Shown: positions 9,357 through 63,243, counted from the stretch's first letter. The stretch: DNA of 64,000 nucleotides from an uncultured Pseudobdellovibrionaceae bacterium (GCA_963803705.1 CAWDNU010000004.1:399943-463942), one strand, 5' to 3'. Translations and numbers: made by a program. The notes: generated by a model from the letters alone, not told the origin.

Positions 9357-9516
9357 CTAGCCGGAGTTAATTTACCACTAGTATAGAAAATGGCTTTGTA
9401 TATCTGCCGAGATACTATAGACGAAGAATTGTAAGAGAACAGTACTTTAAAGGCATTGCCATTTCATTTAGGTGGTATTTGGTATGGCAATTGCTAGCCA
9501 TTGGCTAGGAGCTTTT

Positions 9517-10251
9517 ATGAAATTGAACCTAGCAATAATCTTCTTACTATTATTTCAGTTTAGTAGTAGCTCTTACGGAAATTCTTGCGAGAATTTTATT
9601 TCTTCCAAAACTGTAGACAGCGCAGTCGTAGATAATTTAGTTTCACGAAACCTATTGGTAAATCAAAATTCGGTAAGAGGACGTTCAGGTCTATGCGGGA
9701 TTACTTGCGTTTTTAACGCCCTACAAATCCTCTTGGTTCATGATGGGCACTCACCTAGATTGGATCTGCAAGAGCTCTTAATTGAAGGAGCACTGAAATG
9801 GACCCGTCCCACTGGGGGGTTGAGCCAAGATGGCTTAGTTCATATGATCAAAATAGTTAAGAAAACATACTTCCCCTACATGAGCGCCGTAGCGATTAGT
9901 GGTAAGTATACTGGCAATATTACAGAGTCGTTTTACTTCAGAAAAGTCGAACGACTAAACCTTGGGGATCTCAAGCCAAAACCAGGTAGTGTTTTGATGA
10001 TGTCAGTTGCAGGACTAAAAAGCACAGGTGAGATAGGCTACCATATTTTTATAGTGAAGAGTTTTAACGGAAACACCCTAGAGCTTGTCGACCCGAATGC
10101 ACCGGAAATAGACAAAAAAGCATTACTCAGTAGCTACGGCGAATACAGAGGTAGTAGTGTCCCAGTTTTTTCCTTCAGCGGGAAATATAAATATAATAAT
10201 TATGATCGAATTTTTCCATATTCTTTAGTCCAAATGGAAATTCACAACTAG
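9517..10251 (+). CDS. Secreted hypothetical protein, possibly a papain-fold (C39/C70-like) cysteine peptidase
   Basis: The signal peptide MKLNLAIIFLLLFQFSSSSYG begins at the internal Met; the ORF track starts at 9472. A candidate nucleophile sits in GLCGITCVFNALQ and a candidate His/Asp in GYHIFIVKSF...LELVDPN. Confidence 0.4.
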   Translation: MKLNLAIIFLLLFQFSSSSYGNSCENFISSKTVDSAVVDNLVSRNLLVNQNSVRGRSGLCGITCVFNALQILLVHDGHSPRLDLQELLIEGALKWTRPTGGLSQDGLVHMIKIVKKTYFPYMSAVAISGKYTGNITESFYFRKVERLNLGDLKPKPGSVLMMSVAGLKSTGEIGYHIFIVKSFNGNTLELVDPNAPEIDKKALLSSYGEYRGSSVPVFSFSGKYKYNNYDRIFPYSLVQMEIHN

Positions 10252-13641: not shown

Positions 13642-14448
13642 AAAAAGGGCACAGGATCTTGGATTATGAATTTTGTTCTTTTGATTGTGATTAAGAGCTT
13701 TCATAACCATTTCGAAAGCTCTTGGTCGAAGTAGAGGTTTCCAATTTTGAATTAAATCGTAAACAGAGCTACTTAAATCTGAGGAGTGTTTTATTTTTAC
13801 CCCCAGGCCGTAGTCCATTAATACCCAACCGCGTCCATTAACATACCCAATTTGAAAAGGTAAAAAATCAGGTAACACTTTAACTTTTTCGAATGACTCT
13901 AGGAATAAAATTAGGTCAATAAATCTTGGATCAAAAGAATTAGGTGCTACACTCAAAAACGTGTTTAAAGTCATTGTAACCTTCAAGTATTCTACAACTG
14001 TTACAAAGTCAGATTGGTATTGAAGGTCTAAGATTTTTACAAGGCTTTTTGGATTAACAACAGATCTAAGCAAATAGTAGGATTCCATAAATCCAAGCGC
14101 CATTTGAACAGAATGGCTAGCTTCTAAACCACTGGTTGATATTTTAAGGTCATTAGAGCCGACGAACTGAGCTAAACGAACCGCGTTTCCCCTATCGTCT
14201 TCAAAAACAATTGTGTTGTTTCCTGACCCTAAAAACTGATTGAAAACAATGATGTCTCCAGATTCAAGCACCAGGTGATCCCCGGAATTTACCTTACGTC
14301 CATTAACAATAAGCTCGGAATTATTGTAGATATAATACCCTGGCGTGACTCTATCTTGACCAAACAAAACATGACTTTGCAAACCAAATGCAAGAGAAGG
14401 TACACACAACATTATAAGGACTATTTTAAACACGTGAAGTATTTGCAT
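13633..14448 (-). CDS. Secreted hypothetical protein
   Basis: It has a signal peptide (VLIMLCVPSLAFG). I recognise no family. A Gly-rich LGSGNNTIVF...AVRL segment is faintly kinase-like, which is speculative. Confidence 0.4.
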   Translation of the reverse strand: MQILHVFKIVLIMLCVPSLAFGLQSHVLFGQDRVTPGYYIYNNSELIVNGRKVNSGDHLVLESGDIIVFNQFLGSGNNTIVFEDDRGNAVRLAQFVGSNDLKISTSGLEASHSVQMALGFMESYYLLRSVVNPKSLVKILDLQYQSDFVTVVEYLKVTMTLNTFLSVAPNSFDPRFIDLILFLESFEKVKVLPDFLPFQIGYVNGRGWVLMDYGLGVKIKHSSDLSSSVYDLIQNWKPLLRPRAFEMVMKALNHNQKNKIHNPRSCALFLR

Positions 14449-14670
14449 AAATTATACCACCCCAACTTGGCCATCACGGAACTACACCATGGTCTAACCA
14501 CCATAGACCTGACGATATCCTGAAAATTTTTAACCAATTAAAATTTTAAAAAGTGACTTTCTTGAGCTTTATTGAATTTCCATCGTAAAAACCAGAACAA
14601 AGTGATGATTAATTAGGAAAGTAATTAAGTGGTCTAAATATTGCTTATTATTAAAAGATCGAGGATTTAT

Positions 14671-15858
14671 ATGAAATTTACTATTATTTTTATATTTTTA
14701 ATGCTTATTAGCACTATCATTCAGGCTCAGAGAGAATCTTGGAAAGACTATCAATGTATGCTTCAAAAATTCGATTTAGTTATTAGTAAGACTGTAGGCG
14801 AATGCTCAGGTACTTTTTTAAATAATAATATTTTTTTAACAGCGGCGCATTGTATTGATATACTATCTGCAGGCAATTCTGAGGACGTAAATTTTGAATA
14901 TTTAGTGGACTGCCCAAACTTAAAAGATTTTGTAAGCGTTAAAAATATCGCTGTTCACCCTAATTATTTTCTTAATGACGAAGACCTTGATGCATTTAAC
15001 TCGACCGCGTTGAATACTAAATATTTAATTGATCCTCAATCATTCGCCAGCTTAGTTAAGTATAATGACATCGCTCTGCTTTATACTAGCCATACACCTT
15101 TTGATGATTATCCGTCATTGGAGACAACTTCTAATAATACTTATAAAAACTGTAGCTTCTTAGGTTTTTCCAGGGACTATTGCCACAGTCCAGGCGGCGA
15201 AGGATGTCTTCGTGAACAAAAATCTATTTCCCCTTCAGATTATGGCGATTCTTATATGGATATTATGTGTAACCTTTTAACGGGTGAAAATTGTTATTTG
15301 CGATCTCAAGAAAAATTACGCTTACCTGTGCATCTTCAAACTGAAAAACCAAAATTTAGCCATGGTGACTCAGGAAGTGGTTTAATATGTAAGGTAGGCA
15401 ATAAAAATAAAATTGTTGGTTTAATTATTGGTCATGATCAAAAAACTGGTATTTTATCTTTAGCCCATAAAAACAGTTTTATTAGCGACTTTATTGGATT
15501 AAATGAGATTGAGTTTAAAACAAAATCGATGAATTTTTCTATCGAAAATCAGTATCGTAAAATCTTACAAAAAGCTCTTGATATCAAAAGGCAGTTATAT
15601 CCAATCAGCAGAGTCTTTGTTGGAAACCAAGGAATTGGCATTTTAACTAAGTTAGAAAATTGGATTTTGAAAAAAGGAAGTTTAATTAACTCAGGGCTTG
15701 AAAGAAAAAAAATAAAATTTATTAGCATCGTGGCGTCTGGGTCTGAAAACGCAAAGCAATCTGAAAAGCCATTTATTCATAAACCCACTGGATCTTACGG
15801 AATACTATATATTTTCACAAAATCAGACATAGACGATATAGAAAACATATTATTTTAA
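14671..15858 (+). CDS. Secreted trypsin-like (S1 family) serine protease with a C-terminal extension
   Basis: The catalytic triad motifs are LTAAHC (His), YNDIALL (Asp) and GDSGSGL (Ser). A signal peptide is present, and the ATG at 14671 follows a GAGG RBS. The ORF track starts at a TTG at 14641. Confidence 0.85.
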   Translation: MKFTIIFIFLMLISTIIQAQRESWKDYQCMLQKFDLVISKTVGECSGTFLNNNIFLTAAHCIDILSAGNSEDVNFEYLVDCPNLKDFVSVKNIAVHPNYFLNDEDLDAFNSTALNTKYLIDPQSFASLVKYNDIALLYTSHTPFDDYPSLETTSNNTYKNCSFLGFSRDYCHSPGGEGCLREQKSISPSDYGDSYMDIMCNLLTGENCYLRSQEKLRLPVHLQTEKPKFSHGDSGSGLICKVGNKNKIVGLIIGHDQKTGILSLAHKNSFISDFIGLNEIEFKTKSMNFSIENQYRKILQKALDIKRQLYPISRVFVGNQGIGILTKLENWILKKGSLINSGLERKKIKFISIVASGSENAKQSEKPFIHKPTGSYGILYIFTKSDIDDIENILF

Positions 15859-16054
15859 TAATTTTCTTTAAAGTTATAAACTTACAAAGTTAAACTTTTT
15901 AGATGTGGTAGTTTAGACTTGTATTTAAATAACTTATTTTCCGAACCATCGAATTCAATTCGTGTAGAAATCCACTCAATATTTTTCAAAAATTTCGACC
16001 ACATTACCTGAAGTCATCTTAATTAAATCGTCTCTAGTATCCGGAATTTTTCAA

Positions 16055-16945
16055 GGAAGATGTCGCATTTAATTTTTATGACGCCTGCTGAGCAGCTGCC
16101 AAGTCTTGTACTTTCTTAGTTTGCCTTCCTGAATTTAGCTCCAGAATATTGGGACGAGACCAATTTCTCGTATCCTTCGTCCAACGAATTGAATTTTGTC
16201 TTCGACCATTTTCGAAAACAGACTTTCGATTCTCCAAAATTTTTTATCTTTTTCAAAATGCCAAGATGCAGGTGTAACCCAATTAATACCACTATATAGA
16301 TGTTCGTTATTATACCAATTAACAAACTTTTCCGCCCATGCTCGTGGATCTTTTATACCTGAAAAGCGATCTCCTTGCGGGTACAACGGACAATACTTTA
16401 GCGTCTTAAAAAGGGCTTCAGAGTATGGATTGTCTTCTGAAACTTTAGGACGGCTAAAAGATGGTGTAACTCCAAGTTTGTGAAGGGTTGCAAGCATTGT
16501 TGCACCCTTCATCGGTCCACCATTATCTGAATGAAGCGTAATTTAATTTCTGTGAGTATTGTGCTTAATACGGGCTGCTTCGATCATCTCACTTGCTAGG
16601 CTGGCATTTTCTGTTGGGTGAATGTCCCAAGACAAAATTTGATTTGGACTCATAGCTAAGAATTCTTCTGGTTTCGCATACGGGCGCGGCTGTGACTTAC
16701 TTCTGTGGGCAAGCATACTCTCCGAATTCAAAACCCGGTTGAAAGTGCTCTCACTGGCAACGTACTTACCTTGATCTGCAAGTCTAGGAACGATCTGGCA
16801 TTTTGGTAAATTTGCAAACTCTGAACTGTTGGCAGTACTGTAGAACTAGGGTTTTCCGCAAAAACAACAATTTTTGTCATAAATTTAAGATTTTTGTTTT
16901 TCTGACCAACCTACATTGAAACCCTCTTAATTTTGAAATGCGACC
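16055..16945 (-). mobile_element. Decayed IS3-family (rve/DDE integrase) insertion sequence remnant
   Basis: Transposase-derived reading frames lie between candidate imperfect terminal inverted repeats. GTCGCATTTAATTT lies at about 16062-16075, and the reverse complement of GAAATGCGAC lies at about 16936-16945. The ~0.9 kb size is too short for an intact IS3 element. Confidence 0.55.
16076..16840 (-). pseudogene. IS3-family transposase (orfB/integrase core) pseudogene
   Basis: Recognisable pieces occur in three frames: QIVPRLADQGKYVASESTFNRVL..., SPNQILSWDI, and LHSDNGGPMKGATMLATLHKLGVTPSFSRPKVSEDNPYSEALFKTLKY...WYNNEHLYSGI. There is an in-frame TAA at 16543-16545. An internal deletion follows WDI. 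A frameshift precedes the C-terminal ...SIRWTKDTRNWSRPNILELN... segment that stops at 16076-16078. The N-terminus and orfA are missing. Confidence 0.75.
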
Positions 16946-17891: not shown

Positions 17892-18253
17892 CGTATGATA
17901 GCTAGCTCTTATGAACACTTTACTCATCAACCCCTTTTTGCAATTTCTGAGCATTAAATTAAATCCCTTTCAAAAGTTTTAGAGCCTGTGTTGTTGATCC
18001 AGTCCCAGACTTCTTTTTTAAGCTCGGGGTCTTCAGGTTTCGATTTTAAGCGAGGTTTTGTGACTGTTTTAATTTCTCCAGTTTTCATATTGGTTACTTT
18101 GCAAGGCCTTTGCTTTTCATAATGTTTTTCATAATGTTAAAAGGGCCCAAAATTGTCAGCGAATCTGTTGGGCGCCATTTTCAAGCAGCTTAAAACTGTT
18201 ATGACCTATTTTGGCTAATCAAAAGTGGGTCCTAGATTTGCAGTTTTACAGGT

Positions 18254-18844
18254 ATGAAAAACTTAGAACCAAAAGTTATCAGTAAAGTGGGCGCAGTGTT
18301 AATGACTATTTTTGCCATGAACCTAATTGGGTGTGGCGGCGGCGGTGGTGGAAGTAAAGCAAGCACCAAAGCATGTCCAAGTAATCCATACTATGACTCT
18401 TATGAAGACGAGTGGTATAATTCCAGACACGATCTGACCTCTTGTAACCCTCTTCCGCAGACCTCAAGTGGCAGGTGTAGAAAAGGCGAAACTGCTGTTA
18501 GATCTCCGATTAGCTTTAACCTTGAATTTGAAATCAAAGTTTCAGCGGGTCTAAATGTTGGACCTAATTATCATCGAAATCCAGGTCAGTACGAAGAAGT
18601 TTGCGTGTTTGATAATAATGGACGCAGAGATGGAAGAGAGTGGGCCTATATAGATCATAACAGCAACTACGACTATATTGATTTTGATAGAATTCAAAGA
18701 ACTCGTCAAAGACCACCGGTTGTTCATCAGACACAAACAGTTTATAGAACTTCTGGAATCATTGCCGAACAAAGACCAGTGACTACAACAGACGTGCTTG
18801 TTGGTGTCGGAATACTTGGTGTTCTAGCTGTTTTGTTATTGTAA
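18254..18844 (+). CDS. Hypothetical lipoprotein with poly-Gly linker and C-terminal hydrophobic tail
   Basis: The lipobox NLIGC is followed by GGGGGGS. The C-terminus VLVGVGILGVLAVLLL ends the protein. Confidence 0.5.
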   Translation: MKNLEPKVISKVGAVLMTIFAMNLIGCGGGGGGSKASTKACPSNPYYDSYEDEWYNSRHDLTSCNPLPQTSSGRCRKGETAVRSPISFNLEFEIKVSAGLNVGPNYHRNPGQYEEVCVFDNNGRRDGREWAYIDHNSNYDYIDFDRIQRTRQRPPVVHQTQTVYRTSGIIAEQRPVTTTDVLVGVGILGVLAVLLL

Positions 18845-18967
18845 TAATTTTTTTTAAAAATCTAGCATTGAACCTTTAAAGGCTCGCAATTTTTTTTTAA
18901 CTGATGGGTGAATATTTTAATTTTAATTTTTAAATTTCAACTTTCAACTTTCAGTTTCCGCTTAGCA

Positions 18968-19627
18968 CTAAAGTCTAAAATGAAATCCACATACCACACC
19001 AAATTCTTCTAAAGTAGCTGGAGTATCTGAAACGTCTACGATTGAAGACGAGGTAAAAATTTCTGGCCTTAAAATTAAGTTAGGTGAAATTTGGTAATCA
19101 AAACCAATATGAACACCCATATAAATTTGTGAAGAGGTCACATCTTGAATCACATCTGTTTCGCGTTTCGTTTTAGCAATTGCTAATCCAGTGCCCAAGC
19201 CAATAAACGGAGCCCAAGTTTGCACTGTTATAGCCGATCCTAATCCCCCAGTCGGTATGATGGGCGGAGAATTATAAAAATAGCGCCTTAGAATTAAGCC
19301 AGAAAAACTGACCCCGGAACTGAAAGGTCCTAATCTAAAACCCCGTCTGTGACTAAATGCCAAAGAATACTTTGTGGCTATAAATGTTTCAATGCTTACA
19401 CCTAGCATGCCTGGGGTTTCGGCTCTTGATAAATCAAAAGTTTGAGTTTCAACTATCACCTCTTTATCTATGCCCGATCCACCATATCCAATCATCCCGC
19501 CGTATATGAAATCGGGTTTAAACCTTAAAGCGTGGGCTTCATTGATTAATAGAAACTGAAATATCAGAAAAAAAATATAAAAGCGTTTACGACTAGGCTG
19601 CAACTGACAATCCCTTAGCGTTATCAT
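18968..19627 (-). CDS. Hypothetical envelope protein, possibly a small OM beta-barrel
   Basis: The signal-like segment FYIFFLIFQFLLINEAHA is followed by Gly-rich amphipathic strand-like segments. The likely start is the internal Met (MITLRD...). It overlaps the 3' end of the upstream gene. Confidence 0.4.
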   Translation of the reverse strand: MITLRDCQLQPSRKRFYIFFLIFQFLLINEAHALRFKPDFIYGGMIGYGGSGIDKEVIVETQTFDLSRAETPGMLGVSIETFIATKYSLAFSHRRGFRLGPFSSGVSFSGLILRRYFYNSPPIIPTGGLGSAITVQTWAPFIGLGTGLAIAKTKRETDVIQDVTSSQIYMGVHIGFDYQISPNLILRPEIFTSSSIVDVSDTPATLEEFGVVCGFHFRL

Positions 19628-21380
19628 CTTTCTTTTTAATCGCGTCTTCCAATGAAATAACATTAGTTAAGACTAGATTTTCAAGCCTATTATGTAAAGA
19701 ATAAATTAAGCGCTCTTTTTCAACCACAGCCACCAAATCACTGCGAGATAGATCGTCCTCTAGAATTTGCTTAGCCCTAGGGGAGATTAAACCTAAAATT
19801 GTATCTGTCATATTTGGAACAATCCTTAAGTAAGCCATCAACTCTTCGTTAGTAGAACGCTTGATTACCACCTCTTGAGACTCTTTTTTCCAATCAGCAA
19901 AAAAACCTATATGTGGATTTTTTTGCTTGAAAGTTTCAACTACGGGTCCTTCGACTTTCGGTAAAATTTTGCAAGCGTCAATGTAGGACATACTTTCAAC
20001 AAGCTTATTTAGTGTCATTGACATTGATACCTCAGATTCGGCAACCTTTTCTTCGAAGTAAGGTGCAATTTGAGTTTCTATATCGTTCAACTTATCTTGA
20101 CTGATGGAACTTAATTTTGCTGCTGTATTTAAGAGCTCAACTTTTTTATCATCAGCTAGTTTGGAAAAATAATTCTTTCTTAAAGACTCTGGCATATACA
20201 GCGATACGACGGTTTGAATATCGATATCGTTACCTAGCAGTACCTGATTTACAGTGCCAAGCGAGCTGCTACCTAAGAAAGAAAAAGGTCTGTGTAAAGT
20301 GTCAGTACCAAGATTTAGTGAAGCCACTAGATCCCAGTAAGTACGATTTGTTACATCTAATCTTTTTTCTAATGGCAACTCTGACATTTTAGAAAAAACA
20401 TTACCCATTTCCTTTTTATGTTCCTTTGGAATAGGCAAGCTTCCTAAGACACTTCCAGAAATTTCTGCAAAACACGCTATTTGCATTAAACCTGTTTCGC
20501 CCTGCTCGCACCACTGTGCCACTAGCTGATCCAATTGCGTTACAAGTTTAGGCGATAGGTCTTTTATCTGATCAGATACGGCTTCAATTTTGGTGTCTAA
20601 AGCCAAGTCTATGGCAGCTAAGTTAGATTCTTTCGAAGGGCTTGAACCACCTAGACCTTCTGTTGCAGTCATCTCGGATTTACTTTCAATATTAACAGAT
20701 GCGGCCTGGGCTTGATCTTTAGATTTGCCACCACTTAAAAGTCGCCACAGTACAACGCCCAACAGTATGGCCAGTGCCAAAATAAGCTGTCCCACCAAAC
20801 CCTGCATCTGAATGATGCGGTCTAAGGTTGATGGATTAGTTGTTTCAGATTGGATAAATTGCACTTGGCTTTTACCCAAAGCGCCAAACTCTTCTTTAAC
20901 CCGCGCTTGCAACCACTCTTCAATATTACTTTTAATTTTATTGCCCATACGCTCTTGTAAGCCTACATTAACCATTACAGACTTAACTGCATACTTGGCT
21001 AAAGGACTTACGCTTGCAGCATCAACACTTTGGTAGCGATCAAACAAAGTGTCGGCGTCTAAATATCCCAAGTCTAAATCTGTGTACTGATCGTTTTGGC
21101 TTGATAGCTTTCGGTTTTTATCCTTGCTCTCATCCATAGTTTCTAATTCAAACCTTGCGCCTACATTAAAACGTTCAAAAGTGATCAATGCAGAAAGTTC
21201 TTGAGAATACCTGCGAACAATCATGTCTTCAAGCGCAGCTTTCACGCTAATCTCATCAGCTCTTTTTAGTGGTGAAACAGCGTTGACCGACTTGTTGCTA
21301 CTTATTTTTTTTGTGTTTTGGGAAAAGCCATGACTTGAAAAAAAAATAATCAAAATTGGTGCTGCTAACTTTAATTTCAT
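19593..21380 (-). CDS. Membrane-anchored protein with a FliG-like middle/C-terminal (rotor torque-helix) domain
   Basis: The signal peptide is MKLKLAAPILIIFFSSHGFSQ. A ~190-aa extracytoplasmic region precedes the TM helix LVGQLILALAILLGVVLWRLL. The cytoplasmic part contains PFSFLGSSSLGTVNQVLLGNDIDIQTVVSLYMPESLRKNYFSKL and NEELMAYLRIVPNMTDTILGLISPRAKQILEDDL. These resemble the FliG FxFL...LL and ...MSxRAAxMLREDL segments as I recall them. Confidence 0.55.
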   Translation of the reverse strand: MKLKLAAPILIIFFSSHGFSQNTKKISSNKSVNAVSPLKRADEISVKAALEDMIVRRYSQELSALITFERFNVGARFELETMDESKDKNRKLSSQNDQYTDLDLGYLDADTLFDRYQSVDAASVSPLAKYAVKSVMVNVGLQERMGNKIKSNIEEWLQARVKEEFGALGKSQVQFIQSETTNPSTLDRIIQMQGLVGQLILALAILLGVVLWRLLSGGKSKDQAQAASVNIESKSEMTATEGLGGSSPSKESNLAAIDLALDTKIEAVSDQIKDLSPKLVTQLDQLVAQWCEQGETGLMQIACFAEISGSVLGSLPIPKEHKKEMGNVFSKMSELPLEKRLDVTNRTYWDLVASLNLGTDTLHRPFSFLGSSSLGTVNQVLLGNDIDIQTVVSLYMPESLRKNYFSKLADDKKVELLNTAAKLSSISQDKLNDIETQIAPYFEEKVAESEVSMSMTLNKLVESMSYIDACKILPKVEGPVVETFKQKNPHIGFFADWKKESQEVVIKRSTNEELMAYLRIVPNMTDTILGLISPRAKQILEDDLSRSDLVAVVEKERLIYSLHNRLENLVLTNVISLEDAIKKKDDNAKGLSVAA

Positions 21381-22091
21381 TTAGCATCCTTAGCTTTTGT
21401 ATTAGTTTCGTCTTCTGGTTTATCTTTAATATTTGTGTTTATAGCTGGATTGTTTGCAGGCAATCGTGTTGGAATTCTTAGCGTGTCTCTTACTTTACCG
21501 GCCATATCAATAGCAGTTTTTAGTTCAGGATTAACGGCAAGGGCATTTTCGTACCATTTTAAACTTTCTTGAAACTCGCCTTTGGCATAATGAATGGCAG
21601 CCTTCATACTTAGCGCTCGATCAAACTTTGGAAAGACTTCTAAAAATCTTATCAATTTCTATCAGCGCGCGTTCAAGTTGCGAGGTGCGTGCAAATTGCT
21701 GGGATAAAAATAACTTTTGCAGTAAGTCTTGGGCTGTTTTCAACTCATCGGTGCTACTAGTTGTTGGATCTAATTTTAAAACCAGCTGAGTTCCTAAATT
21801 TCCACCAGCATTTATAGGCACCCATAAATCTTTAGTTTTAAAACCATCCTTACGAATAATTATATTAACTAAACCACCTGGATAATTCTGACCTTTTAGA
21901 TGCTCATCTAATTCTTTACTGGTTTTCAACAAAGGAGTTTGGCCTAGGTTTTTTTCATCTTTAGTTTCTGGATTAACAACGAAGACTTCTGCCAGCTCGG
22001 GGTCAGTAACAACTTTAAAAGACGCTGTGCCGCAAGAAGTAGTACCTAAAAGCAACAAAACTAACTTAAAACCATATAAAAATCTATTCAT
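21377..22091 (-). pseudogene. PEGA-domain lipoprotein fused to TPR repeats, split by a 1-nt frameshift in a homopolymer (track ORFs 21621-22091 and 21377-21655)
   Basis: The upstream part has the lipoprotein signal LLLGTTSCG and the PEGA-like FKVVTDPELAEVFVVNPET...GQTPLL. Its tail ...ARTSQLERALIEIDKI continues as LEVFPKFDRALSMKAAIHYAKGEFQESLKWYENALAVNPELKTA (TPR) in the other frame. That continuity requires removing one base of the A5 run at 21642-21646. Confidence 0.55.
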
Positions 22092-22220
22092 AGAAAACCC
22101 TTCTTTCTCCTATATTTTATCGAGTTTTTAGGCCTTTTGCTTGATACATAAAACAGGTATTCTATACCTAAGGCAGGTCTGGAAATTTAAGATAAAATTG
22201 TTGCACCAGAATCGAAAGTT

Positions 22221-25200
22221 TTACAGACCAACGTCGACACGAATAGACGACTGCTTAAGAGTTAGATTTCCTGCACTTGGACTAACTTTGGTAACAAAGT
22301 TTTGGTTTACCGGAAAACCTGTTAACTCTGGACTTACATAGAGAGTTATATTGTCTGAATTTACAGAACGCTCTGATAATCCAAGGTCTATTAGATTCAT
22401 ACTTCCGCTATTTTGATTGTGATATTGTAAACTTACCAGTCCATCAGAAAATCCGTTGTCTTCAACCAAAGCCTGAAAATAAAACTTAGGGGCTAAAAAT
22501 TGGTTAGAATCAATCTGAACTTTTTCATCGAAGTAGGTTGTATCAGAAGACGTAAAATCTTTTTGGTTAGTGATTCTGTAAGCAACACTGGCTTTAGACA
22601 AATTAGTAAGTTTTACCCACAGCCCTGCTTTATGCACTTTAACCTGTCCAGATGAGCAATAAAATTCACACCTCATCACAAGTCGGTACCTTTGGCCATT
22701 ATTTGCCGAATCAAAGTGCTGCACTCCCTCGTTAAATGGAACCTCGGCTAGCCGTAAACTAGTGTCAGTAAAGCGAGTCTCTGTGAATGGAACAATCTGA
22801 GAATTTCCAACATTTTGAAGAGCTATTTGACCCTCTGCTCCGCCGTCAGTTGAAACTACTGCTTCTAAAGTCCATCCATTGAAATTAGAAATTTTAGAAA
22901 GTAGATTTGAATTTTTGATCCACCTGCTTGAGCTGGAATAGTCATTATATATATTTTGATTAGTTGATGATGCATAAATGTCAGAGTCCGTATTCGAAGG
23001 TGAAACCAAGGATGAAATAAGTGGGTAGTATATTTTTGTTTTTGTAGCGTTAGTTTGGTTCACTAAAAGCTTTGCGGTTAAAACGCTTAGTTCGCCATCA
23101 CTTGTTGTTTGCTCTAACTGAACTCTGTAAATGTCTTTTCCTGTAAAACCACTTATAGTTGATTTAAATCTTGTAAAGTCCAAGGTGTTTGCTGGAACGT
23201 TTATAGAGTCAACCACTGCATCCGAGCTGTCCACAATCACAACTGCGCGAGAAACACTGTCAGCATTTTGAGCAATAACCTCGATCTGGTAGCTTGTAAT
23301 GCCATCGTAATCACTGACATTGAACGTTGTCTGACTTCTTTCAAAAGCTAGATCTGTAATGCTACTTGAAGACATCGGAGTGTCAGTCAACTCTATCGGG
23401 ACCTGAAGTTTAAGTGAGCCGTCTCGAAGAATGGAGACTACATTTGACGACAAAGTTTTTCTTCCGTCAGCATAGACACCTTCAACCCTGTAGTGGTAAG
23501 TCGTGTCAGAAATCAGATCAGTGTCTTGGTAGCTAAGTATTGATGCAGTCCCAACCACGCCGAATGGTCCCGTAATACTTTTTGATCTTAAAATATTATA
23601 ACTAGCTACACCAGCTAAACTGTTCCAATTTAAATCAATTGAGTTAGAACCATTAACTGCAGTCAAACTTGCCGGGCCACTCACTAAGATAACGCCCACT
23701 TCATTAGAATTTGCAGACATAACCCCTGAAGAGTTAGTTGACCTAATAACATAGTAATAACTTGCTCCGGAAGTTACGGTGGTATCGTTAAAATTTACAT
23801 CGCCGGATGTCGGCAAAGCTATTTGTGCATAGGGTCCACCTTTCACTGTAGATCTAAGCAGCTGATAGTTTTTAATATTAGGAACTGCCGACCAGTGAAG
23901 GGTTAAACTACTATTTGAGTTGATTACTGCATAGAGTGCTCGCGGTACTTCAGGCACAACGGACAAATTAATCGGGTCACTAATTTGCGACACGCTCATT
24001 TCGGTGCCGCTAGCATTGAAAGGCTGATATTTATAAAAATAAGTTAAGCTAGGATCTACAACCAAGTCTGTGTGAGTTAAAGCAGTTAAATTAGTAGCAA
24101 TTTTTTGAAAGGTGACCCCATTCGTCGACCTTAAAATATCATAAGTTGTAGCACCTAAAGTTGCATCCCAATTCACCCTAACTTCATTAGCAGAAAGAAA
24201 TTGAGCCTTAGGTTTATCTGGCCTTAAAGAGGGTATGATCTTTACTTCATTTGAAGCAGGGCTTTCGTTAGATCCATTTAATGCAGTTACACGAAAAAAG
24301 TAAGTTGTACCATTCGTTAAACCAGTAATTCTAGTCCCACTTGAAGTATTAGAACTTTGAATTGGCGCTCCATATGATCCCGAAGTGGTGGACATATATA
24401 CATTAAATGAGTTTCGATTTGATATCTCGCTCCAAGTTAAAACAATCTCTGTACCAGTGTTATTGTTCTCTGCATTTAAGTTAGATGGCGCTAAGGGTAT
24501 AATTCCGGGACTAAAACCCAAACTTACAGGTGATTCTTTATCAAGCACACCAAAGTGAGCGATAACTTTATAGAAGTATATTTGTCCGTTAGTGGCTGCT
24601 AAATCTGTAAAATTGGTCATAGAATAATTTGTAGCTATTGTTGAAAAGTTGACTCCGTCAGTAGACCTTAACAGATCATAACTAATAGCTCCGCCGACGG
24701 CAGACCAAAACACTTGAACTTGATTATTGCCCACTGTTCCCGCTGGCTGCTGAGGTAAACCAAAAGTGTATGCTGACACTACATCAGAATCAGAAAATGA
24801 CATACCTATGATAGCCCGAACTTTAAAGAAATGTTCAGTCTGCGGGCTTAGTCCGAAAACATTTCGGGTGGTGCTTAGCGAATTTGAAACTAAAGTAAAG
24901 GGTCCAGAAAAATTTAAAGCTTTAAAAACTTGATAACTAGTTGCACCACTGACACTTGGCCAGTTTATGACCGCCGAGGTGTTCCCCGTGACTGTCACTG
25001 ATACATTTGAAGGCCTAGTTGAATCTGATCGTTGTCCAGTCACTACATTTGATTTTTTTCCTTCCGTTAAGTCTGAAAATCTAGCCCGAACCTTGTAGTA
25101 GTACCCGGTATTAGTGACAACCCCTGTATCAGAATAAGTTGAACTCACCGATGTGTCGTAATTAACAAATGGACCCGTTATAGTATTGGACCTAGAAATA

Positions 25201-28200
25201 ATGTAGCCAGCTGCTGCGCTGACGTCGGACCAATTTAAAACTAGTTGGGTAGTTTGCACCATTAAACTTAAGTCACCAATGGGCGCGTGGCGATACTCTA
25301 CAGTGTTAGAAGCTGGAGTTTCATATCCACCCCATAAAGCCGTGACTCTAAAGTAATTTAATCCTACAGATAAAGGGGCTGAAATTATGTTTGCATTCAG
25401 CGATGTGCTAACAACTGTAAATGGGCCCAAAGGGTTAGAAGACCTATAAATATTAAATGAATTGAAATGACTTGGGGATGTCCAAGACAGCTGAGCTCTG
25501 GCTTCTTCTTCTATATAATTTATGACTAAGTTACTAGGCAAGCTAGGATTGGTAAATGATCGACCAGAACTAAGGGTAGAAGGATAAGCTACGTAGATGT
25601 AGTCGCCATCCCCATCTATTAAGTGTGCTTGGACATAATAGTAAGCGCCTGATCCATTGGGACTTGTATCCGCAAAATTTCTTGATGAAATATTGTTAGC
25701 TATTTTTGTAAAGGTTCCATCGGGATCTGTGGATTTAAAAACATCATATTTCAAATCACCCGAGAAAAATCCTGAAGGAACATTTGGAGCATTCCAGCTT
25801 AAGTTAATACTTGCGTCACCTGGTCTAACTGTTAAGTTCGGAGCATCGGACGAGTAAAAACCGTACAACTGAAATTCACCACTTACGCCAGATCCCCAAT
25901 CGGTTGCCAATTTATAATAATAAATATTATTCGAATTAAAACTACAGTCATTATAAAAAGTTGTGGACACGGTAGCAATAGTATTTGTAGTGCCCTTATT
26001 GTTTCCTCGATAAACTCTAAAGCTTTCGAAATAAGGGGGGGCAGTCCATGCGGCCCTTACTCCTCTTGAACCAGAGCACTGCTCTGAGCTGCTCACAGGT
26101 GTTATAGTAAAATTGATAGGCGGGCTAGGAATTTGTTTTGGGGTGGCCGTCACAATATTAGACTGCATACTTTCACCAGCGGGGTTACTTGCAACAACGT
26201 AGTAATAGTAGGTTTGGTTATTAGTTAAACTTTGGTCTCTGTAGGATGTTGTCGATGTGCTAACAGACAAATCGGTAAAAGGGCCACCAAATTGTATGGA
26301 CCTAAACAACCTATAAGTCATGTTTTGAGGAAAGCCACTCCAAGATAAATTTACCTCGGCATCAGAAATAACAGCTGACAAACTATTGATTTGAACAGGG
26401 TTTGGGGCTGTCACTAAAATTGAAACTTCAGAGGAATTTTGACTTCGACCTGTAGAATTATTTGAATACACTCTATAAAAGTAAGTTGTGTTATCAGAAA
26501 CCTGAAGGTCAGTAAAATTGTTAGAAATTTGTGAGCCACTGATTAAGGTAAATGGACCACCCGAAGATAAGCTTCGTTCTACATTATACATAGGCGCAGG
26601 GTTAGAAAATGTGTCTGGAAACCAATTGATTCGAACCGTTCCATTTACATTTAATGTCGCTGTTATATTTGAAGGCGGTAAGTTGTAGTGTGTGAAGTTT
26701 GTTAGAAACCTGCAAGCAGAGCGTGTTCCAACTTCATTAATTGTTTGGCCATATATTGAAGTTAGTTGGTTCAAAGCTAAAGTCACAGGCACACCTGTTG
26801 AGGTAAGTAAGCTAGGGTTATGATTAGAAATCAAGTTTGAACAACTAGAATTAGAAAAAATTCCTAACCCAACCCTATTCATAAAATCTGTGCTAAAGCC
26901 ATAGGATCCGCGAATCAAAATATTTGGACTGTAAGAAGGTGAACCTGGGTTCGTCGATAAAAAATTCGGCACCGCTGGCACTAAATTATTGAAAGTATAG
27001 AAAGTTAAAAAGGTGCAATCACTCGCATTACCAGCATCATCAAAGGCGCGGGCATAAATTGAACTTTCAGCGTTTTCCGCTACATTGATCAAAATACCCG
27101 CGGTCTCAAACTGTGCAGGAGTTCCTTCACCAAGCTTACTTACGCAAGACATGCTGTCATAAAAATCTACTCTTGTAGGTTGAAGTTGACTAGTAGGCTT
27201 CATTAAAGACTGACCTAAAATTGTTGGAGCAGAAGACTGATTGTTAGGCGAAATTGGAGTAGTAGATGTAAAGGTCGGATTTTCTGGAGGAACCGTATTA
27301 TGAATATAGTTTGTAAGAAAAACGCAAGACGAGTAGTTCCCAAAAACATCTAAAGCGCGCCCATAGAGTGCATTTGTTGAATTTTGAGGTAGTGTAACTA
27401 TAACCCCAGAAGATGTAAACTGACCCCTTGATCCCGAACCTATTTGCATCGGCCCAGAACAAATATTGTCTCTGTAGATGATCACTGATGCGATGCTTGA
27501 GTCAGCTGTGCCTAGTACTGAAGGCGTAAAAGATCCACTTGATGGTGATGCTGGAAAAGTTGAAACAAAAACTGGGTTTGGTGCAGGGTTCGCAGAGTGA
27601 GCGTAGCTTGCGTGAAAGAAACATGCAGATACGTTGCCCTCTAGATCTTTTACTTGCACGTAAATAGGAGTAGTATCATTGGCTTCAGCAGTGATTAAGA
27701 TACCAGATCCTTCGTAATCATCGGTCATCCCTTGGCCAATTTGTAGAGTGCATGATTCATTCTTAAAAAAAGTAAGTTCTACTGTTCTGTTAGAAGCATC
27801 ACCCTTTATTATTGGTGTCGTGGTGATGTTCGACGGTGAATTCGGAGTCAAAGATGTAAAAACTGGGCTGTCAGGAGCAAAGGTATTGTGGACGTAAGTA
27901 GTTAAACTGTCGCAGGTAGTTGTGTTTCCTGCAGCGTCGAAAGCTTTTCCAAAAATAGACGTGGTATCATTATCTCTTACATTAACAACAACGCCGTTCG
28001 AATTATAGTCTACTCGGCTACCTGAACCGATCACATTTAGACAAAGCGATGAGTCATAAAAAACAATAGATTCAGTGTCACTACTGGCAAATCCTAGCAT
28101 TTTAGGAAGAGTGGTCTGATTGGTCGGAGACACAGGATCGGCTGAGTTAAAAACCAAGTTTTGTGGCGAAATATCATCATGAGTGTAAGTAGTCAGTAAA

Positions 28201-29135
28201 GCACATAAAGAAGGCTCACCCATGCTGTCGACTGATTTTGCATAAAGCGTCGTAGTGCGATTTGCTCCTACAGTGATTTGATAGCCATCGTTAAGAAATG
28301 TAACAGGATCTCCGGCTGCAAGTTCGGTTTGGCAACCCGAATCCGAATACAGTGAAACAGAAACTGAACTGGCATCTGAAGACACTCTGACCACAGGTGT
28401 TGTACTTTGGTTACTTGGTGATTCAGGGGTTAACGATACTAATTCAGGAAATGGGCTAAAGGCGTTCGAGTGGGCGAAGTCGGTCATAAATGTACAAGCC
28501 GATGGAGTGCCAAGAGGATCTAAGGTGCTGGCATAAATAGATGTTGTATTATTCGCATTAACTGGCACGGCAATACCTATCTGAGAAAAGTCATTTGCCG
28601 ACCCGCTGGATAGTGCAACAGAGCAATTTAGGTCGCTAAAGAATCTAATCGTGGCAGAAATTGGTAGGGCCTGTCCAAAAAGCCCTGGGGTTGTAGTCAC
28701 TCGTGACGGCGACATAGGTGAAACGGCTGTAAATACAGGAGCACTCGGGATTAGAGCTGGATTAGAATAGGACTGTAAGAAAATGCACTTGCCAACAACT
28801 TGGGATTTTGCATATAGATCAACTGCTACATTAACTTCGACTTGTACCAAGGCACCTTGAGACTTAAAATTATTTACCAAAGACTGCCCGATCACAGAGC
28901 TTGAACAATCATCGTTGGTGTAAAAATCCAATCGATCAAGATTCACGTATTTCGTCCCACTGGTTTCACCCAAAATACGAAGCTGAACAAAGGTCGAATT
29001 GTAATCAATAACTTCTATAGAACTTACTGAAAGTGATGAGCCAGAAGAATCAGACGCACGTTTGCCCTCTTGACACCCCGTCAAAAAAAACAAAATCACA
29101 ATAAATTCTTTTAACAAATTACGTTCCACAAACAC
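22221..29135 (-). CDS. Giant surface lipoprotein (2304 aa): ~8 Cys-pair Ig-like repeats, ~12 fibronectin type III domains, and a unique ~450-aa C-terminal domain
   Basis: The lipobox is LFFLTGC with a GTG start. Eight ~95-aa repeats end in C-x(5,6)-Y/F-x-H/F...P (for example CALLTTYTHDDISP). The Fn3 signatures include VRINWFPD, VNLSWSGF, INLSWNAP, LVLNWSDV, AVINWPSV, IVLTWSEI and IDLNWNSL, each followed by ...Y.Y.V.A. Confidence 0.8.
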   Translation of the reverse strand: MFVERNLLKEFIVILFFLTGCQEGKRASDSSGSSLSVSSIEVIDYNSTFVQLRILGETSGTKYVNLDRLDFYTNDDCSSSVIGQSLVNNFKSQGALVQVEVNVAVDLYAKSQVVGKCIFLQSYSNPALIPSAPVFTAVSPMSPSRVTTTPGLFGQALPISATIRFFSDLNCSVALSSGSANDFSQIGIAVPVNANNTTSIYASTLDPLGTPSACTFMTDFAHSNAFSPFPELVSLTPESPSNQSTTPVVRVSSDASSVSVSLYSDSGCQTELAAGDPVTFLNDGYQITVGANRTTTLYAKSVDSMGEPSLCALLTTYTHDDISPQNLVFNSADPVSPTNQTTLPKMLGFASSDTESIVFYDSSLCLNVIGSGSRVDYNSNGVVVNVRDNDTTSIFGKAFDAAGNTTTCDSLTTYVHNTFAPDSPVFTSLTPNSPSNITTTPIIKGDASNRTVELTFFKNESCTLQIGQGMTDDYEGSGILITAEANDTTPIYVQVKDLEGNVSACFFHASYAHSANPAPNPVFVSTFPASPSSGSFTPSVLGTADSSIASVIIYRDNICSGPMQIGSGSRGQFTSSGVIVTLPQNSTNALYGRALDVFGNYSSCVFLTNYIHNTVPPENPTFTSTTPISPNNQSSAPTILGQSLMKPTSQLQPTRVDFYDSMSCVSKLGEGTPAQFETAGILINVAENAESSIYARAFDDAGNASDCTFLTFYTFNNLVPAVPNFLSTNPGSPSYSPNILIRGSYGFSTDFMNRVGLGIFSNSSCSNLISNHNPSLLTSTGVPVTLALNQLTSIYGQTINEVGTRSACRFLTNFTHYNLPPSNITATLNVNGTVRINWFPDTFSNPAPMYNVERSLSSGGPFTLISGSQISNNFTDLQVSDNTTYFYRVYSNNSTGRSQNSSEVSILVTAPNPVQINSLSAVISDAEVNLSWSGFPQNMTYRLFRSIQFGGPFTDLSVSTSTTSYRDQSLTNNQTYYYYVVASNPAGESMQSNIVTATPKQIPSPPINFTITPVSSSEQCSGSRGVRAAWTAPPYFESFRVYRGNNKGTTNTIATVSTTFYNDCSFNSNNIYYYKLATDWGSGVSGEFQLYGFYSSDAPNLTVRPGDASINLSWNAPNVPSGFFSGDLKYDVFKSTDPDGTFTKIANNISSRNFADTSPNGSGAYYYVQAHLIDGDGDYIYVAYPSTLSSGRSFTNPSLPSNLVINYIEEEARAQLSWTSPSHFNSFNIYRSSNPLGPFTVVSTSLNANIISAPLSVGLNYFRVTALWGGYETPASNTVEYRHAPIGDLSLMVQTTQLVLNWSDVSAAAGYIISRSNTITGPFVNYDTSVSSTYSDTGVVTNTGYYYKVRARFSDLTEGKKSNVVTGQRSDSTRPSNVSVTVTGNTSAVINWPSVSGATSYQVFKALNFSGPFTLVSNSLSTTRNVFGLSPQTEHFFKVRAIIGMSFSDSDVVSAYTFGLPQQPAGTVGNNQVQVFWSAVGGAISYDLLRSTDGVNFSTIATNYSMTNFTDLAATNGQIYFYKVIAHFGVLDKESPVSLGFSPGIIPLAPSNLNAENNNTGTEIVLTWSEISNRNSFNVYMSTTSGSYGAPIQSSNTSSGTRITGLTNGTTYFFRVTALNGSNESPASNEVKIIPSLRPDKPKAQFLSANEVRVNWDATLGATTYDILRSTNGVTFQKIATNLTALTHTDLVVDPSLTYFYKYQPFNASGTEMSVSQISDPINLSVVPEVPRALYAVINSNSSLTLHWSAVPNIKNYQLLRSTVKGGPYAQIALPTSGDVNFNDTTVTSGASYYYVIRSTNSSGVMSANSNEVGVILVSGPASLTAVNGSNSIDLNWNSLAGVASYNILRSKSITGPFGVVGTASILSYQDTDLISDTTYHYRVEGVYADGRKTLSSNVVSILRDGSLKLQVPIELTDTPMSSSSITDLAFERSQTTFNVSDYDGITSYQIEVIAQNADSVSRAVVIVDSSDAVVDSINVPANTLDFTRFKSTISGFTGKDIYRVQLEQTTSDGELSVLTAKLLVNQTNATKTKIYYPLISSLVSPSNTDSDIYASSTNQNIYNDYSSSSRWIKNSNLLSKISNFNGWTLEAVVSTDGGAEGQIALQNVGNSQIVPFTETRFTDTSLRLAEVPFNEGVQHFDSANNGQRYRLVMRCEFYCSSGQVKVHKAGLWVKLTNLSKASVAYRITNQKDFTSSDTTYFDEKVQIDSNQFLAPKFYFQALVEDNGFSDGLVSLQYHNQNSGSMNLIDLGLSERSVNSDNITLYVSPELTGFPVNQNFVTKVSPSAGNLTLKQSSIRVDVGL

Positions 29136-46962: not shown

Positions 46963-46976
46963 CTTATCGGCTCCAA

Positions 46977-47795: not shown

Positions 47796-47938
47796 GCTTT
47801 TGCTCCTTGTTAGTTACTTTTTCGGCTTCATAAATTAAGTGCATGAGTCTAGAACACTGATCATTAATTTTGAGTTGTCCTACAAGCCAGACTTTTGTAG
47901 GGTCAACTCAGAAAATTTGTTTAATTTGGGATCAAAAA

Positions 47939-51751: not shown

Positions 51752-51752
51752 C

Positions 51753-57034: not shown

Positions 57035-57036
57035 AG

Positions 57037-59803: not shown

Positions 59804-59819
59804 AACTAAAGGAGAAGCT

Positions 59820-61292: not shown

Positions 61293-61374
61293 TGACTTTT
61301 TTGTTGAAAAAAATTTGGTAATTACATTTGGCAGTCACAGCTGTTGCTATCATTTAAATGCATGAAGGTTAAAC

Positions 61375-63225: not shown

Positions 63226-63243
63226 AGCAGATGGCTCAAATCA

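Follow-up and report, generated by a model that had tools for sequence, protein, structure and literature searches.

A membrane-bound FliF–FliG-like fusion protein encoded with MotAB in a non-flagellar gene cluster of Pseudobdellovibrionaceae

We analyzed a stretch of 64,000 nucleotides (nt) from an uncultured Pseudobdellovibrionaceae bacterium (GCA_963803705.1, CAWDNU010000004.1:399943-463942), hereafter referred to as the window, which carries on its minus strand an open reading frame (ORF; 19593-21380) for a protein of 595 amino acids (aa). A first-pass annotation made from this DNA alone had proposed that the product joins a FliG-like rotor domain to a signal peptide and a periplasmic domain through one transmembrane helix, that it resembles a minimal FliF–FliG fusion, and that it is encoded in the same strand cluster as a MotAB pair. 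Direct translation recovered the ORF, the 595-aa product and all of the peptides quoted for it: PFSFLGSS...FSKL corresponds to residues 365-408, IGFFADW to residues 491-497 and LISPRAKQILEDDL to residues 531-544, encoded by nt 19749-19790 (about 19745-19790 in the annotation). The ORF is the penultimate gene of an uninterrupted run of twelve minus-strand genes extending from 47795 to 18968, which encode, in this order, MotA, MotB, a GYF-domain protein, a 1199-aa protein, a LysM protein, proteins of 357, 1964, 1083 and 2304 aa, a TPR protein, the fusion protein and a protein of 219 aa. The fusion protein consists of a signal peptide, a periplasmic domain of ~150 aa resembling ring-building motif (RBM) 3 of FliF, one transmembrane helix and a helical cytoplasmic part of ~345 aa with FliG-like M and C domains, as judged from profile, Foldseek and model evidence. 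The results support the view that this protein and MotAB represent a flagellar-type rotor and stator, with a fused rotor, in a non-flagellar context.

The cytoplasmic part, which had been claimed to contain the FliG middle (M) and C-terminal (C) domains, proved to be homologous to them both by profile and by fold. As a single sequence, the fusion protein did not reach the curated FliG cut-offs of NCBIfam and Pfam: NCBIfam FliG matched residues 378-548 at E = 6.4e-6 with 25.5 bits (equivalog cut-off, 550), and Pfam FliG_M matched at E = 0.038 with 14.6 bits (cut-off, 25). Because a single-sequence search of PDB returned no FliG match, only a spurious Sel1 match at E = 1.4, profiles were required to detect FliG in that database. 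The profile of 31 close homologues matched Thermotoga maritima FliG-MC (1lkv) at E = 2.2e-5, and that of 66 diverse members matched it at E = 3.9e-17, with profile positions 370-585 aligned to residues 3-220; the evidence for FliG thus grew stronger as the family profile was broadened. With the 66-member profile, we also detected full-length Aquifex FliG (E = 3.3e-11), Helicobacter pylori FliG (4e-8) and Salmonella FliG (4e-7), and all 13 PDB sequence matches at E < 1 were FliG. The M domain was covered in the profile alignments to 1lkv, 3hjl, 3usy and 4fq0, and Pfam FliG_M and FliG_C matched 18 (best, 3.7e-5) and 12 of the 31 members, respectively. MgtE_N, a family for which a check had been suggested, appeared neither in the Pfam scans of the 31 members nor in the PDB profile searches, and this identity was rejected.

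Structural comparison gave a similar picture. An AlphaFold2 model of the fusion protein was built on 31 homologues (mean pLDDT, 67); it contains a disordered linker at residues 217-249 and an all-helical region at residues 250-580, with the highest confidence at residues 460-580 (pLDDT 83-91). When this model was compared with PDB using Foldseek, the top 14 matches were all FliG chains. The FliG_C-like domain (residues 453-580; 19641-20024, minus strand; pLDDT 83-91), which was identified by profile, AlphaFold2 and Foldseek, superposes on 1qc7_B with a template-modelling (TM) score of 0.77 and a root-mean-square deviation of 2.2 Å, and on the MotAB-bound FliG_C 8ucs_H with a TM-score of 0.76 and a deviation of 1.9 Å. 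The FliG_M-like armadillo domain (residues 365-450; 20031-20288, minus strand), recognized by Pfam and PDB profile matches, starts at the invariant PF of RPFSF (residues 364-368), the counterpart of KPFSF at the start of T. maritima FliG_M, and H490-x-x-F493-x-x-x-W497 was aligned to the MFxF hinge of FliG. We also considered whether an unrelated helical-repeat protein could resemble FliG by chance. The single-sequence Pfam matches below gathering thresholds would be compatible with such an accident; however, the profile E-value covering both domains, the exclusive occurrence of FliG among the PDB sequence matches and the superposition on FliG_C at ~2 Å refuted this explanation, and its probability is negligible. 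The cytoplasmic part contains FliG M and C domains, and the likeness is far above chance.

Upstream of the M domain, a conserved helical region (residues 250-364; 20289-20633, minus strand), delineated from the AlphaFold2 model and family conservation, occupies the position of FliG_N. Within it, W290, G294, G297 and Y348-W349-D350 are nearly invariant across the family. Full-length FliG chains align to the model over 308-334 Foldseek columns, and this is the sole hint that residues 248-364 might stand in for FliG_N.

Within the C domain, the equivalent of the torque helix lies at residues 534-544 (PRAKQILEDDL; 19749-19781, minus strand), where both the HMMER alignment and an AlphaFold2 helix spanning the same residues locate it. 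HMMER pairs SPRAKQILEDDL of the fusion protein with MSKRAAALLKDEL of T. maritima FliG, so that the alignment made by eye in the first-pass annotation was the same as HMMER's own. R535, D542 and D543 thereby correspond to R281, D288 and D289 of Escherichia coli FliG, of which R281 contacts MotA E98 and the two aspartates contact MotA R90 (PMC12505986). For 146 full-length relatives, an acidic residue was found at position 542 in 137 (94%) and at position 543 in 135 (92%); the claim that the acidic pair is retained therefore holds for the family as well as for this protein.

The N-terminal segment (residues 1-21, MKLKLAAPILIIFFSSHGFSQ; 21318-21380, minus strand), as read from the sequence, is a signal peptide or possibly, as in FliF, a first membrane anchor; a hydrophobic N-terminus is present in 102 of the 146 relatives, and the family consensus of this segment ends in AQ. 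The single transmembrane helix (residues 188-215; 20736-20819, minus strand) was assigned an N-out/C-in orientation from hydrophobicity, the AlphaFold2 model and charge bias. The peptide originally quoted for it, LVGQLILALAILLGVVLWRLL, covers residues 195-215, the strongly hydrophobic segment covers residues 188-215 and the helix in the model covers residues 185-215. A single internal transmembrane helix was observed throughout the 146 relatives. Their mean net charge was –0.43 in the 15 residues preceding the helix and +1.22 in the 15 residues following it, and lysine and arginine were more numerous on the C-terminal flank in 90 members and fewer in 21. This bias, together with the N-terminal signal sequence, indicates that the first ~190 residues are extracytoplasmic and that the FliG-like part is cytoplasmic, rather than periplasmic. 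The proposed layout of signal peptide, periplasmic domain, one transmembrane helix and cytoplasmic C-terminal part was accordingly confirmed by sequence, model and relatives, and it is kept family-wide. With its signal peptide, its transmembrane helix and its lack of flagellar gene neighbors, the protein is not a soluble cytoplasmic FliG.

The periplasmic region contains one domain of ~150 aa, without the RBM1/RBM2 portion (the SctJ-homology region). In the AlphaFold2 model, it has an alpha/beta fold composed of a helix (37-65), a strand (71-81), a low-confidence segment (82-129), a second strand (130-141), a second helix (143-168) and a third strand (169-175), which corresponds to a split RBM domain at residues 35-176 (20853-21278, minus strand), as predicted from the model and Foldseek. 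We modelled residues 35-184 alone (core pLDDT ~90). When the result was compared with 350,542 PDB chains, the first nine ranks all went to FliF chains of the MS ring covering RBM3 and the S ring, and the top four had probabilities of 0.99-1.00 and TM-scores of 0.52-0.56 normalized to the query; PrgK and SpoIIIAG, other RBM proteins, ranked lower. In FliF RBM3 and SpoIIIAG, an insert sits between strands 1 and 2 (PMC4768692), and the insert of the fusion protein (residues 82-129; 20994-21137, minus strand), defined by the model and by family conservation, shares its position with the beta-collar insert of FliF RBM3. It contains the best-conserved periplasmic motif, D101-L-x-L-G105-x-L-D108, in which G105 is found in 93% of members family-wide. 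When the broad profile was searched against PDB, a FliF sequence was matched only via the FliG part of a fusion chain. The suggestion of a minimal FliF–FliG fusion is therefore supported at the level of fold only. FliF assembles into a ring of ~33 or 34 subunits. Because the E-values described below are modest and the model comprises a single chain, we regard an RBM3-like fold as supported by the modelling and ring formation by the fusion protein as inferred.

This architecture is widespread. A word-indexed search identified 33 full-length relatives with 44-73% identity, and the same 33 were obtained when a broader alignment was used as the query. An exhaustive profile search of 1.84 billion representatives, clustered at 50% identity, yielded at least 225 clusters that reached E <= 1e-3, 142 of them with E <= 1e-30. 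Members are nearly all 580-700 aa long and match end to end, and we therefore conclude that the fusion architecture itself is conserved. In view of the full-length conservation across 225 clusters and the tight gene linkage described below, we rejected the idea that the gene is a pseudogene or a decayed remnant of a flagellar system. In a collection of species-representative genomes, all close relatives came from metagenome-assembled genomes of Bdellovibrionales, Bdellovibrionia or Pseudobdellovibrionaceae; the genus Bdellovibrio falls within Pseudobdellovibrionaceae in the NCBI taxonomy. However, the scan of this collection used peptide patterns specific to close relatives, and GC contents between 37% and 59% were found for the loci of distant members, which indicates that the true taxonomic range is wider than these genomes. 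Every named member is labelled 'hypothetical protein'. We also observed that the family has a conserved Ala-Ala C-terminus (nt 19593-19598 in the window), with A595 present in 87% of the 146 members, and that the MotA proteins of the window (C-terminus, 46977-46985) and of one other locus, L013, likewise end in ...KKAA. Such an ssrA-like 'AA' terminus could be a protease-recognition signal.

The stator genes stand at the head of the twelve-gene run. MotA (46977-47795, minus strand) has four transmembrane helices and a MotA_ExbB domain, and matched Clostridium MotA (6ysf and 8ucs, the latter solved with FliG) at 1e-28 and Vibrio PomA at 8e-28 in PDB. Among NCBIfam models, MotA/PomA scored ~1e-40 (MotA, 4e-40) and TolQ 3e-8, all under the equivalog cut-offs. 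As far as can be judged from sequence, MotA belongs to the flagellar stator class and not with TolQ/ExbB. MotB (46231-46962, minus strand) possesses a plug, the Asp of the ion channel (in ISYADMMTLL) and, for binding to peptidoglycan, a domain of the OmpA type; Pfam MotB_plug matched at 1e-16, Pfam OmpA at 2e-13 and the flagellar MotB/MotD models at 3e-39. Among the loci that carry the fusion module, MotA proteins are 43-57% identical, whereas the fusion proteins are only 21-32% identical, and the stator can thus be regarded as a dedicated, slowly evolving subfamily. R90 of the window MotA aligns with PomA R88 and E. coli R90, and in a PomA-anchored alignment Arg occupies this position in seven of the eight partner MotAs. 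Because the R90 equivalent and the acidic residues at positions 542 and 543 are both conserved, the first of the two charge pairs found in flagella, which links the MotA Arg to the acidic residues of FliG, is kept. The sole locus without the MotA Arg is L013, in which the fusion protein has ESD instead of EDD; this single case of covariation is anecdotal. On balance, we think it probable that the fusion protein acts as the rotor, or as another driven element, of a non-flagellar envelope machine powered by MotAB.

A different use of MotAB-family proteins is found in anti-phage defence, where Zorya contains ZorAB, a non-flagellar 5:2 motor in which ZorA has a long tail and which acts together with ZorC/D or ZorE. 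If the window encoded Zorya or another MotAB-based defence system, the match of MotB to ZorB models (E = 4.6e-16) and the weak match of the 1199-aa protein to the ZorA tail (E = 6e-4) would be explained. However, MotB is closer to flagellar MotB/MotD, MotA has neither a ZorA match nor a long tail, and the ZorA-tail match, located in a K/L/E-rich coiled coil, probably reflects composition. No ZorC, ZorD or ZorE was matched in the window, and neither the fusion protein nor its partners matched PADLOC. As there was no ZorA, ZorC, ZorD, ZorE or PADLOC match among the core proteins, this highly improbable assignment was rejected.

We next consider how stably MotAB is associated with the fusion gene. 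Ten further family members were located by exact sequence look-up (loci are designated by L numbers). In all close loci that were long enough, the order of the genes for the 1083-aa protein, the 2304-aa protein, the TPR protein, the fusion protein and the small protein is kept. The genes for MotA, MotB and the GYF protein follow directly after the small protein in L010 and L011 (~31% identity). L012 has the order TPR, fusion, outer-membrane barrel, MotA, MotB and GGDEF; L013 is a minimal locus of fusion, MotA and MotB; L014 contains (MotA), MotB and fusion; and L015 contains TPR, fusion, small protein, MotA and MotB. MotA and MotB precede TPR, fusion and small protein in L016/L017, where a gene for a 2308-aa fn3 protein is convergent. 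L018 comprises giant proteins, TPR, fusion, small protein, MotA and MotB, and L019 comprises an HD-domain protein, fusion, MotA and MotB, with convergent TPR and small-protein genes; in L021, MotB-MotA is divergent from fusion, TPR and small protein. L020, a contig of 5.4 kb, ends too early, and MotAB is not in view. MotAB was thus clustered with the fusion gene in 11 of 12 arrangements (the window, L010, L011, L012, L013, L014, L015, L016/L017, L018, L019 and L021), and no fewer than five gene orders were represented. The MotAB pair that had been noted in the strand cluster of the window (46231-47795, minus strand) is therefore part of a linkage that survives rearrangement of gene order, and this context makes the link to MotAB much stronger than the first-pass annotation could know. 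The fusion gene usually has genes for a TPR lipoprotein and a small outer-membrane barrel beside it, and often also genes for lipoproteins of 1000-2300 aa.

Further genes adjoin the module in single loci. L012 encodes a GGDEF protein after MotB (14132-15274), and L019 encodes an HD-domain (HD_5) protein (8866-9852) and a SpoIIE phosphatase (14690-16195); the presence of signalling genes beside the module hints at second-messenger or phosphorylation control. Unannotated gene pairs flank the module in two unrelated loci, L014 (3205-5590; 387 and 410 aa) and L018 (6923-9348; 396 and 412 aa), and these pairs of ~390 and ~410 aa may be further conserved components.

No other flagellar gene (export gate, rod, hook, FliM/FliN or flagellin) was found in the 64-kb window or in the ~12 flanks of 10 kb. 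This result bears on the possibility that the protein is a genuine but highly divergent flagellar component, either as the fused FliF/FliG that the organism itself uses or as a member of a second flagellar system. The FliG homology, the likeness to FliF and the flagellar-class stator would agree with such a role, and engineered FliF–FliG fusion chains of Vibrio (8z4d/8z4g) assemble MS rings. However, in addition to the missing flagellar genes, the protein has a single RBM, without RBM1/RBM2, the EHPQ motif of FliG is lost, and the score of 25.5 bits is to be compared with an equivalog cut-off of 550; moreover, Bdellovibrio swims by a conventional polar sheathed flagellum (PMC13104615). We consequently consider a flagellar role very unlikely.

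The two genes adjacent to the fusion gene in the window encode candidate partners of the fusion protein. The gene for the 219-aa protein (18968-19627, minus strand) overlaps the end of the fusion gene, and the corresponding overlap is 11 nt in L012, L015 and L018; the small-protein gene and the fusion gene are predicted from this arrangement to be translationally coupled. A signal peptide and alternating segments rich in glycine and aromatic residues are present in the small partner, whose C-terminus is usually aromatic. With a weak PorG match for the window protein and a weak OMP_b-brl match for its L012 homologue, this partner is likely to be a small outer-membrane beta-barrel. On the other side, the gene for the TPR lipoprotein (21377-22091, minus strand; 237 aa when intact, split here into 156 and 92 aa) has a stop codon that overlaps the start of the fusion gene by 4 nt.

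These observations bear on whether the module is a motor at all. The fusion protein might instead be a static partner that docks, activates or sequesters MotAB, for example as a sensor of ion flux or envelope stress, a stator reservoir or a brake, with signalling as its output. The signalling genes that adjoin the module (GGDEF in L012, HD_5 and SpoIIE in L019 and, in the window, a Fur-family gene divergent from motA), the minimal locus L013 with the fusion protein and MotAB only, and the loss of the second flagellar charge pair are consistent with this explanation. However, a MotAB subfamily with intact plug, channel Asp and anchor, together with the conserved acidic pair, suggests selection for force, and a trans-envelope structure is suggested by the fact that the genes for the barrel and the TPR lipoprotein are translationally coupled to the fusion gene. 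We regard a non-motor function as rather improbable, and a MotAB-driven machine remains the interpretation that we favor.

The other genes of the run, all on the minus strand, encode several lipoproteins, three of them very large, and other proteins. The 2304-aa lipoprotein (22221-29135) has fn3 domains and is conserved beside the module in L002-L011 and L016; the 1083-aa lipoprotein (29203-32454) has FG-GAP domains (an integrin-alpha-type propeller) and Ig-like repeats; and the 1964-aa lipoprotein (32456-38350) has fn3, Big_1/invasin-like and NHL repeats, with relatives in L020, L021 and L018. Next to these are a 357-aa secreted protein ending in ...SLSF (38700-39773) with no family match, whose terminal Phe is a signature like that of outer-membrane proteins, a 335-aa LysM (peptidoglycan-binding) lipoprotein (39815-40822) and a 1199-aa cytoplasmic K/L/E-rich coiled-coil protein (40911-44510); their membership in the system is tentative. 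The 1199-aa protein has no signal peptide, contains 14.5% K, 13.5% L and 12.5% E, and gives SMC-like coiled-coil matches; its gene region shows the lowest GC content (0.315) and the strongest AT skew (–0.27) in the window, and no homologue was detected in the distant loci. A 489-aa membrane protein (44521-45990) with a cytoplasmic GYF_2 domain and one transmembrane helix is also encoded, and its homologue follows MotB in L010.

Comparison with known systems identified the flagellar FliF/FliG/MotAB core as the closest homologous system. Shared with it are the FliG M and C domains, the torque helix, the acidic pair, the RBM3-like split periplasmic domain, the topology in which the second transmembrane helix of FliF is followed by FliG, the R90-equivalent of MotA, and the plug, Asp and OmpA domain of MotB. 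The fusion family departs from the flagellar core in that one chain replaces two, only one RBM is present, FliG_N is not detectable and the EHPQ motif is absent; in addition, the loci have lost the MotA E98 equivalent and lack genes for export, rod, hook, FliM/FliN and filament; TPR lipoproteins, small outer-membrane barrels and giant lipoproteins are found as partners instead. The closest architectural precedent is a natural FliF–FliG fusion of Chlamydiaceae of ~330 aa, which contains RBM2, one further RBM and a cytosolic part matching FliG_M only (PMC4768692); the chlamydial flagellar genes listed are only FliF, FliL and FlhA, and a link to the injectisome was proposed (Bergeron 2016, PeerJ, PMC4768692). 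This protein, too, is a natural single chain with a shortened FliF periplasmic region, a transmembrane helix and a FliG-like domain in a non-flagellar setting. Judged by its published description, the present family is set apart from it by the RBM3-like domain, the complete M and C domains with a torque helix, and the MotAB partner. The engineered Vibrio FliF–FliG chains, which gave the best structural matches to the periplasmic domain, indicate that covalent linkage is compatible with ring assembly; however, they are laboratory constructs with complete FliF and FliG in a complete flagellar system. Taken together, it seems to us somewhat likelier than the opposite that the fusion protein is the single-chain equivalent of the flagellar pair formed by the MS ring and the top of the C ring, inherited with a dedicated MotAB.

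Two gliding systems resemble the cluster in other respects. The Myxococcus Agl-Glt system has an analogous parts list: an ion-driven motor of 5:2 type, the inner-membrane protein GltJ, which carries a GYF domain on its cytoplasmic side (PMC11135422), lipoproteins with TPRs, barrels in the outer membrane and, as an adhesin, an outer-membrane lipoprotein that contains a domain of the integrin type. The design is likewise a trans-envelope one. However, the Agl-Glt motor is a TolQR-like AglRQS acting via the TonB-like GltG/J, whereas MotAB with an OmpA domain and a FliG torque helix are found here, and no homology to Glt proteins was detected in the cluster beyond the GYF_2 domain shared with GltJ; the likeness would thus be one of analogy, not of membership. 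The GldLM/PorLM motor of Bacteroidota, with the type IX secretion system (T9SS), is similar in being an ion-driven inner-membrane motor whose motion crosses the periplasm to components associated with the outer membrane, a small barrel among them (the weak PorG match), and in the giant surface adhesins that are moved. Nevertheless, GldLM is not homologous to MotAB (PMC13104615), no T9SS genes occur here and the GldLM system has no FliG-like element.

These likenesses suggest another mode of action, in which the fusion protein, instead of building a closed rotating ring, forms a membrane-anchored array or mobile unit that is pushed laterally, as a track or rack, by peptidoglycan-anchored MotAB wheels and carries partners in the periplasm and outer membrane as well as surface lipoproteins along the cell. 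The evidence from homology, charges and linkage is identical under this and the rotor model, neither the window nor the flanks encode a rod or export gate that could serve as a rotating axis, and the adhesin-like giant lipoproteins and the GYF transmembrane protein recall Agl-Glt trafficking and the T9SS conveyor belt (PMC11135422, PMC13104615). On the other hand, the periplasmic domain resembles RBMs, the known members of which form closed rings (PMC4768692). The polypeptide itself speaks against lateral transport in a second respect: the M and C domains of FliG are used for ring polymerization in flagella. Lateral transport of this kind appears unlikely to us.

We therefore return to the rotor model, for which the following sequence of events can be envisaged. 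MotB would anchor units of the MotA5B2 type to peptidoglycan, and ion flow via the channel formed at the MotB Asp would turn the MotA pentamer. The MotA Arg equivalent to E. coli R90 would engage D542/D543 on the FliG-like torque helix and thereby drive an inner-membrane oligomer of the fusion protein, most likely a ring. Because the FliG-like module, the transmembrane helix and the RBM domain are one chain, motion would cross the membrane directly and arrive at the RBM ring with its conserved insert, from which it could reach the TPR lipoprotein and the outer-membrane barrel. In this lineage, the last recipients would be the giant fn3, FG-GAP and Ig-like lipoproteins, which resemble adhesins, and our leading guess for the output is movement of surface adhesins for gliding or prey contact. 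The proposal as a whole, that a single-chain FliF–FliG rotor ring is turned by its own MotAB and coupled via the TPR lipoprotein and the barrel to giant surface lipoproteins, and that this is the first use outside a flagellum of the interface by which flagella generate torque, is a tentative one that we hold with appreciably less than even confidence.

Several observations weigh against this interpretation. With a whole-model pTM of 0.39 and a mean pLDDT of 67, the arrangement of domains in the AlphaFold2 model is unreliable. The nine FliF matches of the periplasmic domain have modest E-values of 1.6e-3 to 0.2 with TM-scores of 0.38-0.56, its short insert (~48 aa) is modelled with low confidence as a monomer, and at E <= 0.1 Pfam YscJ_FliF matched none of the 31 members. 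When PDB sequences and Pfam were searched with a profile of residues 248-364, no FliG_N was retrieved; the matches, such as haemagglutinin HA2 and a designed repeat, were noise due to coiled coils or composition, and a FliG_N equivalent is thus not demonstrable in the fusion protein. The FliM-binding motif EHPQ of T. maritima FliG aligns to NDID here and to QNPK in the broad consensus. The first-pass annotation had also counted the MotA-contacting Arg among the retained residues, which is correct for this protein; however, R or K occupies position 535 in only 82 of the 146 relatives (56%). Correspondingly, the equivalent of E. coli MotA E98 (PomA E96) is S, K, A or N in the partner MotAs and never a conserved acid, so that the other flagellar pair, which links this Glu to the Arg of FliG, is not kept, which fits the weak conservation of R535.

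The gene arrangement also raises difficulties. MotAB lies 25 kb from the fusion gene in the window, and the giant lipoproteins are missing from L012, L013 and L019 and hence cannot be the universal output. Furthermore, the TPR gene of the window is frameshifted near 21630, where TTTTT is found instead of the TTTT of L001 and L002; in L001, a Logan contig nearly identical to the window, the gene is intact and encodes 237 aa. This frameshift is probably an assembly or sequencing error, although it could be a real inactivating or phase-variable change.

A full-text literature search found no FliG-like membrane protein partnered with MotAB outside flagella, which is not proof of absence, and in a 2025 survey of MotAB diversity, members of the flagellar clade are taken to be flagellar. 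As far as we have searched the literature, torque generation between FliG and MotA is known only from flagella, and the complete machine has a substantial chance of being categorically new. If the rotor model is true, the rotor–stator core would be a portable module able to function in the absence of the export apparatus, the rod and the C-ring switch, and a system of two or three genes, such as the fusion protein, MotA and MotB of L013, would be a minimal one for torque studies and would bear on the motor-first versus secretion-first question in flagellar evolution. A free-standing rotary machine of this type could be a surviving relative of a pre-flagellar rotor that predates the recruitment of type III export. 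Alternatively, it could be the gliding or prey-contact motor of Bdellovibrionales, and would then provide a candidate motor with adhesin-like lipoproteins for gliding; according to a 2026 review, the gliding machinery of this order 'remains unidentified', and motor and adhesins are 'a major open challenge' (PMC13104615). The findings also point to a systematic annotation problem, in that the fusion protein is 'hypothetical' everywhere and the stator is annotated as 'chemotaxis protein MotA'.

Finally, some features surrounding the run were recorded. A Fur-family regulator gene (47870-48412, plus strand) is divergent from motA, with which it shares an intergenic region of 74 bp, and bounds the run upstream; it possibly regulates the cluster. 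A scan of 18000-23000 for promoters and terminators found sites no more numerous than in shuffled sequence. On the downstream side, an insertion-sequence remnant lies about 2.5 kb past the cluster and encodes 125 aa from the C-terminal part of an IS3-family transposase (rve_3; 16135-16512, minus strand). Genes for a putative ATP-dependent Zn protease, a transglutaminase-like/7TM fusion and a sugar-transfer-associated ATP-grasp enzyme adjoin each other at 49439-52703 (plus strand), and this recurrent-looking triad is unrelated to the fusion protein. The region 55880-63708 (plus strand) encodes a polyprenyl synthetase, a phytoene-desaturase-like amine oxidase, a squalene/phytoene synthase, a lycopene cyclase domain protein and two proteins of the fatty-acid-hydroxylase family (carotene hydroxylase-like), with an interleaved ABC transporter pair, and is a biosynthesis cluster of the carotenoid type.

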